DNA of 42,824 nucleotides from a virus. Under the pieces are notes generated by a model, which worked only from the letters and a program-made list of their open reading frames with translations, ran no database searches and was not told the DNA's origin. Shown one piece after another: positions 36,044 to 37,106 of this stretch (its first letter is position 1; every line of letters begins with the position of its first letter). A program made the position numbers and the translations under genes. The stretch lies in the UHGV virus genome UHGV-0137073. One strand, 5' to 3'.

Positions 36044-36075
36044 AGCACGGTAGACCCCTTACCGTGCTTTTTTTA
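36044..36075 (+). terminator. Rho-independent terminator after the Mor-family gene
   Basis: agcacggta-loop-taccgtgct followed by TTTTTTT. Confidence 0.75.
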
Positions 36076-36112
36076 TGCTCTCTCTTTAGTATTCAGGATG
36101 CAGGGAGAAAAT

Positions 36113-36745
36113 ATGTTTGACGTTTCGTTGTTAAATCTGCCATGGGCAACACTGGTGACCCTGACCAGTGGCTATATTGGGTATTTTATTGCGAATGTGG
36201 GACTGAAGGATCACCACAAGCCCATTGAGGTGACTTTTTCTTCGCTGATTTTTGGCCTGACAGCAATGATGGCTTACCAGGCTGTTATGTGGGCAGGTCT
36301 GAATGCCTGGCTGGCAACACCACCAGCACTTCTGTGTGCCGTTACATGCGGTGCGTGGTGGCGCAGGTACGGTCGCAAATGGATGTACAGATTACTGTGG
36401 AATAATGATATTTCATGGTCTGACGATACCAGCTCAGCATGGCAGGCAATGTTTGATCAAACAGGCTTCAGCGTTACCGAGGTCAGAGTGATTCTTCGCG
36501 ATGGTTCCGGTATGATGTCACGGCTGCCAGGGAACTTTGAAGAGTGGCCTAACGGTCCGTTTACCCTGGGGAATAAAGGCGATATGGTTCTTTACGTCAC
36601 GCACAGCAGCCCTTCAGGCAGTAACGAATGGGAAGAGTATAAAGGCGTGGTTGATAAGTACTGGGGAGCTCTGGCAACCTATATTCCAGCAGATCAGATT
36701 GCCAGAGTGGAGATCAGGCGCGTTCGTGCAACGAACGATGAATGA
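36113..36745 (+). CDS. Membrane protein of unknown function (moron at the prophage right end)
   Basis: 210 aa, three hydrophobic segments then a soluble C-terminal domain; own AGGGAG Shine-Dalgarno, downstream of the terminator. Confidence 0.5.
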   Translation: MFDVSLLNLPWATLVTLTSGYIGYFIANVGLKDHHKPIEVTFSSLIFGLTAMMAYQAVMWAGLNAWLATPPALLCAVTCGAWWRRYGRKWMYRLLWNNDISWSDDTSSAWQAMFDQTGFSVTEVRVILRDGSGMMSRLPGNFEEWPNGPFTLGNKGDMVLYVTHSSPSGSNEWEEYKGVVDKYWGALATYIPADQIARVEIRRVRATNDE

Positions 36746-36748
36746 TGT

Positions 36749-36910
36749 TTATTTTTTCCCTGGGGCAGGGGCTGCCGGCATAGTGGTTTTATTGGCAGAG
36801 GAAGACGATTCTCCTTTTCTACCGGAATCGCGCTCGAACGTCACGATGTGCTTGCTTTTGGGCTTTTCTGAGTAATCCAGGCTATCATGCTTATTGTTTT
36901 GAGTAGTCAT
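36749..36910 (-). CDS. Small hydrophilic ORF (53 aa), hypothetical
   Basis: AAGGA Shine-Dalgarno ~9 nt before ATG at 36910; below the ORF-track length cutoff; Ser/Lys/Pro-rich. Confidence 0.25.
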   Translation of the reverse strand: MTTQNNKHDSLDYSEKPKSKHIVTFERDSGRKGESSSSANKTTMPAAPAPGKK

Positions 36911-37062
36911 TGGAATCATCCTTTTTGTTGCGGGTCATGTTTCAGCAAACTCGATTCTAAGTTGCCAGGAAGGATGATTTCAATGCCCGACTTATCTATC
37001 GTATAGCGGAAAAGAATTTCAGTTCTGTTCACCAGAACCCATGTTAACCCACTCCAATTCGT

Positions 37063-37106
37063 TATTTATCTCACGGATCCCCCTTCATTTATCTCATGTC
37101 TGATCA
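37063..37106 (-). repeat. Right terminal repeat of Mu-like element (inverted copy of left-end boxes)
   Basis: Reverse complement reads TGATCAGACATGAGATAAATG-N15-GATAAATA with spacing identical to the left end. Confidence 0.65.

Follow-up and report, generated by a model that had tools for sequence, protein, structure and literature searches.

What does the BcepMu-like transposable prophage of UHGV virus genome UHGV-0137073 carry between its last early gene and its right end, and what might that cargo do? The window, that is, the whole 42,824-nucleotide stretch of DNA analysed here, holds the prophage as an element of 37,051 bp (positions 56-37106), and the segment in question (35999-36985) lies between mor, the final gene of the early operon, and attR, the right end of the element. 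An earlier note on this DNA had read the region as a single, independently initiated membrane-protein gene insulated by a terminator, with a small open reading frame (ORF) beside it. The segment is a self-contained accessory cassette of approximately 1 kb comprised of two convergent protein-coding genes, one encoding a 210-residue predicted inner-membrane protein and the other a basic, hydrophilic and Pro-rich microprotein of 53 residues. Tentatively, we take this pair to be a toxin-antitoxin-like or phage-exclusion module.

An optional two-gene cassette

The cassette is present or absent at the same position in close relatives of the prophage. The gemA-mor segment is found at an identity of at least 80% in 640 of 5,426 complete Escherichia coli genomes, and the two-gene segment in 132 of these 640 (nearly full-length in 118), leaving approximately 80% of the closely related E. 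coli prophages without the cassette and giving it a frequency near 2% among complete E. coli genomes. In an ST131-type relative and in PhiKM, the nearest phage record (classed as Bcepmuvirus), some 160 bp separate mor from the same attR motifs, with no gene in this interval in the ST131-type relative; from relatives of this kind it follows that 35999-36985 is an insertion between the two landmarks. Similarity of phage relatives to the window fades near the end of mor. The base composition of the cassette is also distinct, with a GC content of 0.473 compared to 0.545 in the early operon and 0.549 in the whole element. The occupancy of 132 genomes in 640, the empty slot of the ST131-type relative and the difference in GC content (0.47 against 0.55) uphold the expectation of the earlier note that optional cargo is carried at this prophage end. 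The objection which that note had raised to its own reading, that the membrane gene might belong to the conserved core of related phages, was checked as well, and the gene lies outside that core.

Presence or absence at one position and distinct base composition are features of morons in the Hendrix/Juhala sense, such as gp15 of HK97. A promoter of its own defines the classical moron, and this was found for the 53-residue gene alone and not for the 210-residue gene. The cassette is like morons in being an optional insertion between conserved features, in its lower GC content, in being bounded by a terminator and in encoding a membrane protein, but it is unlike them in forming a two-gene convergent unit with its promoter on the strand of the partner microprotein and none recognised for the membrane gene. 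As a known kind, it is best described as optional prophage cargo that is probably conflict-related.

The two genes travel together. Homologues of the membrane protein, 72 of which were found, were gathered from genomes and metagenomes of Enterobacterales, Alphaproteobacteria and other sources. Most of the loci examined have a Pro-rich, hydrophilic ORF (33-66 codons) on the opposite strand, which adjoins the 3' end of the homologue or overlaps it. Loci with the pair include, among Enterobacterales, E. coli (three alleles), Klebsiella, two species of Serratia, Citrobacter, Salmonella and Symbiopectobacterium, and elsewhere Bradyrhizobium, Afipia, a metagenome-assembled genome (MAG) of Rhizobiaceae, Devosia, Allosphingosinicella and three metagenomic loci. 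In most of these loci, -4 to +7 nt separate the two stop codons; elsewhere the spacing runs from 81 nt of overlap to a gap of 43 nt, and no locus examined departs from the convergent arrangement. A profile search with the membrane protein returned 521 clusters at 50% identity (E <= 1e-3), of which the best 150 are mostly of some 200-215 residues and matched over almost their full length. Among cultured phages, a homologue was found in one record alone, Synechococcus phage Ssp-JY41, at 29% identity.

The settings of the homologues are varied. One directly follows gpD at a P2-like prophage end, with RelE/HTH, HNH, and ThsB-TIR and caspase-like genes as neighbours; another is found in a mobile island of resolvase, SNase and PIN genes adjoining a type I methylase gene (hsdM); others lie upstream of the terminase gene in a further prophage and in the divergent regulatory region of a prophage-like element. 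Such accessory slots of unrelated mobile elements are typical of defence, exclusion or addiction cargo. Homologues are also found in plain chromosomal settings, and truncated copies occur in some Bradyrhizobium and symbiont genomes (L026-L029).

Both ORFs are protein-coding. A Shine-Dalgarno sequence (AAGGAT) favours the 53-residue start of the small gene over a 56-residue alternative with its ATG at 36919, and RefSeq likewise annotates the shorter form, so that the convergent hydrophilic ORF described in the earlier note stands. Compared to a divergent E. coli allele (L037), the small ORF displays 12 synonymous and 6 non-synonymous differences (dS 0.47), and to a closer allele 4 synonymous changes and none that is non-synonymous. 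The resulting ratio of non-synonymous to synonymous substitution rates (dN/dS) of 0.11, alongside 0.10 for the membrane gene, establishes both as coding, and the small ORF is by this measure under purifying selection. The small proteins, which are probably disordered, diverge quickly and tolerate in-frame indels, and what is kept among them is a central D-Y/F-S-E-x-P-K or N-Y-I-P motif and a C-terminal tail of the PPxPxxKK type. The notion of an incidental small ORF does not survive this dN/dS value, its possession of the sole conserved promoter-like site of the cassette (see below) and its synteny with the membrane gene across two proteobacterial classes.

Some loci carry further small genes. 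In two variant prophages, L036 (2164-2406) and L013 (7690-7977), mor and the membrane gene are separated by an additional, unrelated small gene; neither of these additional genes has a PHROG match, and their products end in …NPPPPPPKC (L036) and …TPSRPPRPLSKG (RPPRPLSKG; L013), Pro-rich basic tails that recall the tail of the microprotein. In a metagenomic or MAG island, L041 (7638-7885; also in L042), two Pro-rich ORFs lie opposite the homologue, both ending in APPPPK(K/R), one of which shares 81 nt with the 3' end of the membrane gene.

Expression signals of the convergent pair

A strong intrinsic terminator follows the Mor-family gene (Pfam, E = 1e-43), as the earlier note had claimed. Its RNA folds at -19.1 kcal/mol (z = -6.7), a value reached by none of 200 shuffled sequences, while its reverse strand folds at -16.7 kcal/mol and has a weaker UUUUAUAC tail. 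A hairpin and T-run occupy this position after mor in all six of the enterobacterial loci aligned, with different stem sequences in Klebsiella and Symbiopectobacterium, and the 35-50 nt that follow the terminator are unconserved across the same six loci. A scan for the sigma-70 consensus, which an atypical or activator-dependent promoter could escape, revealed no site in the interval from the terminator to the start codon of the membrane gene, and no conserved promoter was seen upstream of this gene in the six aligned loci. The independent initiation that the earlier note had assigned to the membrane gene, and the sigma-70 promoter for which it had suggested looking between the terminator and 36112, thus find no counterpart in the window or in its relatives.

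A Mor-binding site in common with the late promoters was also sought. The candidate dyad TTGTTAAAG-TC-CTTTCAAAA (36006-36026) is unique in the window even when 3 mismatches are allowed, and a Mor-dependent promoter therefore finds no support. A scan of 35900-37200 against Rfam gave sub-threshold chance matches on the terminator alone.

The strand of the small gene presents a different picture. A sigma-70-type promoter-like site lies approximately 40 nt upstream of the small ORF, and the promoter scan located identical hexamers at identical spacing in the Klebsiella, Citrobacter and Serratia loci; Salmonella, S. marcescens and Symbiopectobacterium have hexamers that are the same or nearly so, with a partly variable spacer. 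As judged by the scan and the alignments, this appears to be the only conserved promoter-like site of the cassette. With the two stop codons 3 nt apart and no room for a terminator between them, the transcript of the small gene is expected to run antisense into the membrane gene, an overlap deduced from geometry. The first hairpin that this antisense transcript would meet is the reverse face of the mor terminator, with its weak U-tail.

The small gene may also be shielded from transcription entering from outside the element. An inverted repeat links its Shine-Dalgarno sequence and start codon to the -35 hexamer of its promoter-like site, and an equivalent repeat, with arms of 18-28 nt, was seen in all four of the other loci scanned (L010, L013, L015 and L021). 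The consensus fold contains 14 pairs, one of them with compensatory changes, and the single-sequence fold is modestly above shuffled controls (z = -2.55). Since both arms are present only in transcripts that enter from outside, the fold-back may silence translation from external read-through, as in IS10, which uses fold-back inhibition for this purpose. The span of about 200 bp that the earlier note had described as non-coding DNA leading up to a terminal repeat (36911-37106) is not featureless, being mostly occupied by the promoter-like site and by attR with its conserved repeats. The features of the cassette and its borders are collected in Table 1.

Table 1. Positions of the cassette features and of the two landmarks that border the cargo slot
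Feature	Position	Strand	Details
mor, final early-operon gene and left edge of the cargo slot	35600-35998	+	Pfam Mor PF08765, E = 1.1e-43
Intrinsic terminator	36041-36075	+	hairpin 36041-36071, GCACGGTA / TACCGTGC stem extended by A/U pairs, then T7; consensus scan
Gene for 210-residue inner-membrane protein (predicted)	36113-36745	+	AGGGAG 5 nt upstream of ATG; phrog_12870, full-length, E = 6e-134
Three predicted transmembrane helices (residues 11-28, 37-60, 65-97)	36143-36403	+	AlphaFold2 helices, hydropathy
Acidic predicted cytoplasmic beta-barrel domain (residues 119-205), Sm/LSm-like	36467-36727	+	
Gene for 53-residue basic, hydrophilic, Pro-rich microprotein	36749-36910	-	phrog_15726, E = 1e-41; stop 3 nt from membrane-gene stop
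Inverted repeat	36908-36985	-	arms 36908-36923 (Shine-Dalgarno and start codon of microprotein gene) and 36970-36985 (-35 hexamer); 16 nt, 94% complementary
Sigma-70-type promoter-like site of microprotein gene	36954-36983	-	TTGAAA, 18-nt spacer, TAGAAT; 10/12 consensus matches
attR, prophage right end	36990-37106	.	repeated ATTTATCTCA motifs, terminal ...CTGATCA; mirrors left end at position 56

The membrane protein and the proposed function of the pair

Hydropathy (three hydrophobic segments centred near residues 22, 50 and 70) and an AlphaFold2 model (predicted local distance difference test, pLDDT, 84.8) agree with the three transmembrane helices and soluble domain that the earlier note had described. 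Five Lys or Arg residues fall within positions 83-100, after the third helix, and this RRYGRK cluster, together with the KDHHK loop, fits a predicted N-out, C-in topology. The cytoplasmic part is predicted to fold as a strongly bent, five-stranded beta-barrel of the Sm/LSm type, which superposes on solved Sm/LSm chains. The structural matches returned by Foldseek include LSm domains that bind peptides and not RNA, for example 6f9w, which was solved with a short peptide. The isoelectric points of the two partners are opposed, being 4.7 for the C-terminal part of the membrane protein and 9.7 for the microprotein.

The homology and structure searches proposed in the earlier note assign the protein to phrog_12870 and, beyond this and the predicted Sm/LSm-like domain, point to a weak kinship with DUF6338, a family of likewise small integral membrane proteins. 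Of 34 family members, 19 match the DUF6338 model (PF19865) weakly (best E = 8.5e-6), with the matches at the loci looked up flagged as faint, and the window protein itself has no match at E <= 1; by way of these relatives, it appears to be distantly related to DUF6338. In the literature searched, DUF6338, for which no function is known, is mentioned a single time and in passing, and the RefSeq accessions and PHROG identifiers of the two cassette proteins go unmentioned; both phrog_12870 and phrog_15726 are without known function. A sequence-profile search of the PDB with the membrane protein gave nothing significant, and Foldseek comparison with viral structures gave one uncharacterised match (E = 1e-4). 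No informative fusions were found, the longer members of the family having low-complexity extensions or doubtful starts. A catalytic triad of S101, D104 or D157, and H164 was considered and dropped, as H164 varies in distant members.

The working of such a module may be pictured as follows. In the lysogen, the microprotein and the antisense transcript would hold the membrane protein scarce or inactive, perhaps with the PxxP-Lys tail of the microprotein docking on the SH3-like LSm barrel. Loss or overriding of this restraint would free the membrane protein to work at the inner membrane, where it might form an oligomeric pore or bar the entry of DNA, by analogy with toxin-antitoxin systems, abortive infection and single-protein excluders such as SieA of P22. 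Docking of the tail on the barrel is a specific guess, weakly suggested by the opposite charges of the partners, by the peptide-binding LSm domains among the structural matches and by the Pro-rich basic tails encoded by the two extra upstream genes. A bolder version extends this to a widespread and hitherto unrecognised two-component conflict module, in which a membrane-anchored LSm/SH3-like effector is kept off by a docking Pro-rich microprotein and by antisense transcription, adaptors with like tails (L036 and L013) plug in, and the whole serves as cargo of unrelated temperate phages and mobile islands that aborts or excludes competing phages; in this full form we find it rather doubtful.

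Several known systems offer points of comparison. The convergent, 3'-overlapping toxin-antitoxin loci, par/Fst of pAD1 and TxpA/RatA and BsrG/SR4 of Bacillus subtilis prophages, share with the cassette a membrane product set against a convergent partner with no room for separate terminators, a stronger promoter on the side of the partner, and carriage on mobile elements. Their toxins, however, are peptides of less than 60 residues and their antitoxins are non-coding RNAs, whereas here the membrane protein has 210 residues and a folded domain and its partner is protein-coding. Type II toxin-antitoxin loci differ in their layout, as they are co-directional bicistronic operons and the present genes are convergent. 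The predicted order of an external N-terminus, three transmembrane helices and then a cytoplasmic Sm-like beta domain is that of MscS channels and suggests a membrane-anchored, ring-shaped oligomer. Homology with MscS itself was rejected, given an hhalign probability of 0.1 and the lack of a Pfam MS_channel match in any of the 34 members. The superinfection-exclusion protein SieA of P22 comprises 162-164 residues with three transmembrane domains and resides in the inner membrane (PMC10883804). No sequence relationship of the cassette protein to SieA was found, its only PHROG match being phrog_12870, and unlike SieA, which acts alone and has no such domain, it has a conserved partner gene and an LSm-like domain of approximately 110 residues. 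A layout with a convergent microprotein partner, an LSm-like membrane protein and a promoter on the partner alone was not found in the libraries or literature searched.

A number of observations weigh against a toxin-antitoxin-like or exclusion function of the pair. Toxin-antitoxin pairs in which both components are proteins are not typically convergent, and a partner ORF could not be recognised in four loci that have an intact membrane gene (L019, L020, L040 and L043). Neither protein belongs to a family of known function in Pfam or NCBIfam, and neither is matched by any model of PADLOC-DB v2, even at E <= 10. The lack of conservation of His164 in distant members argues against a His-dependent site and gives no positive clue to activity. 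The module is put forward as a genuine possibility that we hold at somewhat short of even confidence.

The alternative closest to the earlier note is a single-gene moron, whereby a promoter of its own drives production of the membrane protein in the lysogen and the protein blocks the entry of superinfecting DNA in the manner of P22 SieA, the small ORF being incidental or at most a minor regulator. The insulated, optional slot at a prophage end, the presence of homologues in accessory slots of other prophages, and the resemblance to SieA of a three-helix inner-membrane architecture with a cytoplasmic C-terminal part are all as this would have it. The promoter it calls for was seen neither between the terminator and the ATG nor as a conserved site in relatives, the small ORF is under purifying selection and co-inherited in two proteobacterial classes, some copies reside in chromosomal contexts unrelated to phage, and the SieA motif FxRYPxEAxxFNK is absent from the 210-residue sequence, so we regard a lone excluder as unlikely. 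A role in the lytic cycle is a further alternative: expression of the membrane gene, at a low level and only upon induction, would come from read-through of the terminator, which alone separates the gene from the co-oriented 8-kb early operon, and its product would target the membrane as the phage develops, for instance to serve the timing of lysis or in a holin-like way, exclusion during lytic growth or host takeover, with the microprotein setting a threshold. The N-out, C-in arrangement of three helices is also that of class I holins, and the remaining viral Foldseek matches are mostly holins. These matches are insignificant (E = 0.02-0.7), cover the helices alone and leave aside a folded domain of approximately 110 residues that is missing from holins, and the cassette is distant from the late region, is dispensed with by some 80% of closely related E. 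coli prophages and has counterparts of the pair outside prophages. A lytic accessory function is, on this balance, quite improbable.

The roles of the two products might also be reversed, with the microprotein or the long antisense RNA as a constitutively made payload, a lysogenic-conversion or regulatory factor, and the membrane protein as its anchor, sensor or exporter. It is the small gene that the sole conserved strong promoter-like site drives, its protein sequence is constrained, and the fold-back repeat seems to limit its translation to transcripts from its own promoter. Against such a reversal, inspection revealed no signal peptide or leader motif in the microprotein, which diverges much faster than the membrane protein and was always accompanied by the membrane gene in the loci examined, and we think it very unlikely. 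That the cassette is merely decaying or neutral hitch-hiking DNA with chance ORFs would accord with the lack of a known function and with the truncated copies (L026-L029), but is already contradicted by selection and synteny: dN/dS is near 0.1 for both ORFs, the 521 clusters are of similar length with full-length matches among those listed, the promoter-like site is conserved and the position of the terminator is kept across loci. Neutral drift is scarcely credible as an explanation.

The host element and the meaning of its cargo

The context of the cassette is a BcepMu-like transposable prophage with the expected domains, TG...CA termini, repeated end motifs and many insertion sites. The domain scan placed a DDE transposase (29423-31192, rve), a MuB-like AAA_22 ATPase, GemA and Mor on the + strand; the - strand bears the late genes, with a Gin-like invertase at the left extreme. 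The termini are imperfect inverted repeats of the form TGAT-N9-GAGATAAATG, and the right end closes with ...CTGATCA at 37106, its terminal dinucleotide CA occupying 37105-37106. Homology common to 114 complete E. coli genomes that carry the mor-to-end sequence stops at 37106-37107, and the site of insertion varies among them (flgA, yfaV, clbG, kefF and others), as expected of a Mu-like element. When aligned with five other right ends, one of them from a cassette-less prophage, attR is conserved through the terminal TGATCA.

The flanks of the prophage do not match each other. The left flank (1-55) matches part of the prophage integrase gene intS at 100% identity, and the right flank (37107-37374) is a truncated DnaB-like helicase gene of the lambdoid or Stx-phage type, adjoining a lambdoid-prophage replication-O gene. 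The 5-bp flanking sequences are unequal (CACAT and CATAT), and the left-flank sequence is absent within approximately 1.5 kb of the insertion point in an Stx2a phage. This mismatch suggests a prophage-mediated rearrangement, recombination between two copies of the element or an assembly join.

Other parts of the window deserve brief description. The gene for the Gin-like serine invertase (134-835) adjoins inverted repeats of 229-274 bp (770-1043 and 1284-1512 against 2633-2906), and 770-2906 probably represents a tail-fibre segment that inverts to give alternative C-termini. The region 25099-27392, which lies between the late arm and the early arm, contains an ORF of 247 residues without a Pfam match and a Dam-type N6-adenine methyltransferase gene, both on the + strand, and is possibly a second cargo region. 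In the record of PhiKM (L002, PQ738613.1; 3586-3930), a gene annotated as 'Fe2+ ABC transporter permease protein 2' is located past the end of the element at ...TCTAATCA and is probably packaged or flanking host DNA and not a phage gene. Outside the prophage, a 40-nt inverted repeat (38989-39028 / 41393-41432) containing TATCACCGCCAGAGGTA-like sequences flanks an ORF of 237 residues (39073-39786), an arrangement that presumably represents lambda-type operators around the cI-like repressor of a host lambdoid prophage.

Prophage cargo slots are a productive source of new anti-phage and addiction systems, and the family described here spans hundreds of sequence clusters, with neither protein having a known function. 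If the cassette should have no role in defence or addiction, the finding is a well-described cargo cassette of which the function is not known. That a conserved gene pair with asymmetric expression signals occupies the slot, rather than a lone membrane gene, makes the system experimentally tractable. If the microprotein does dock on the LSm-like domain of its partner, the pair would represent a new design of effector and control in bacterial conflict systems, and the microprotein would be a further functional example of a kind that annotation tends to miss.

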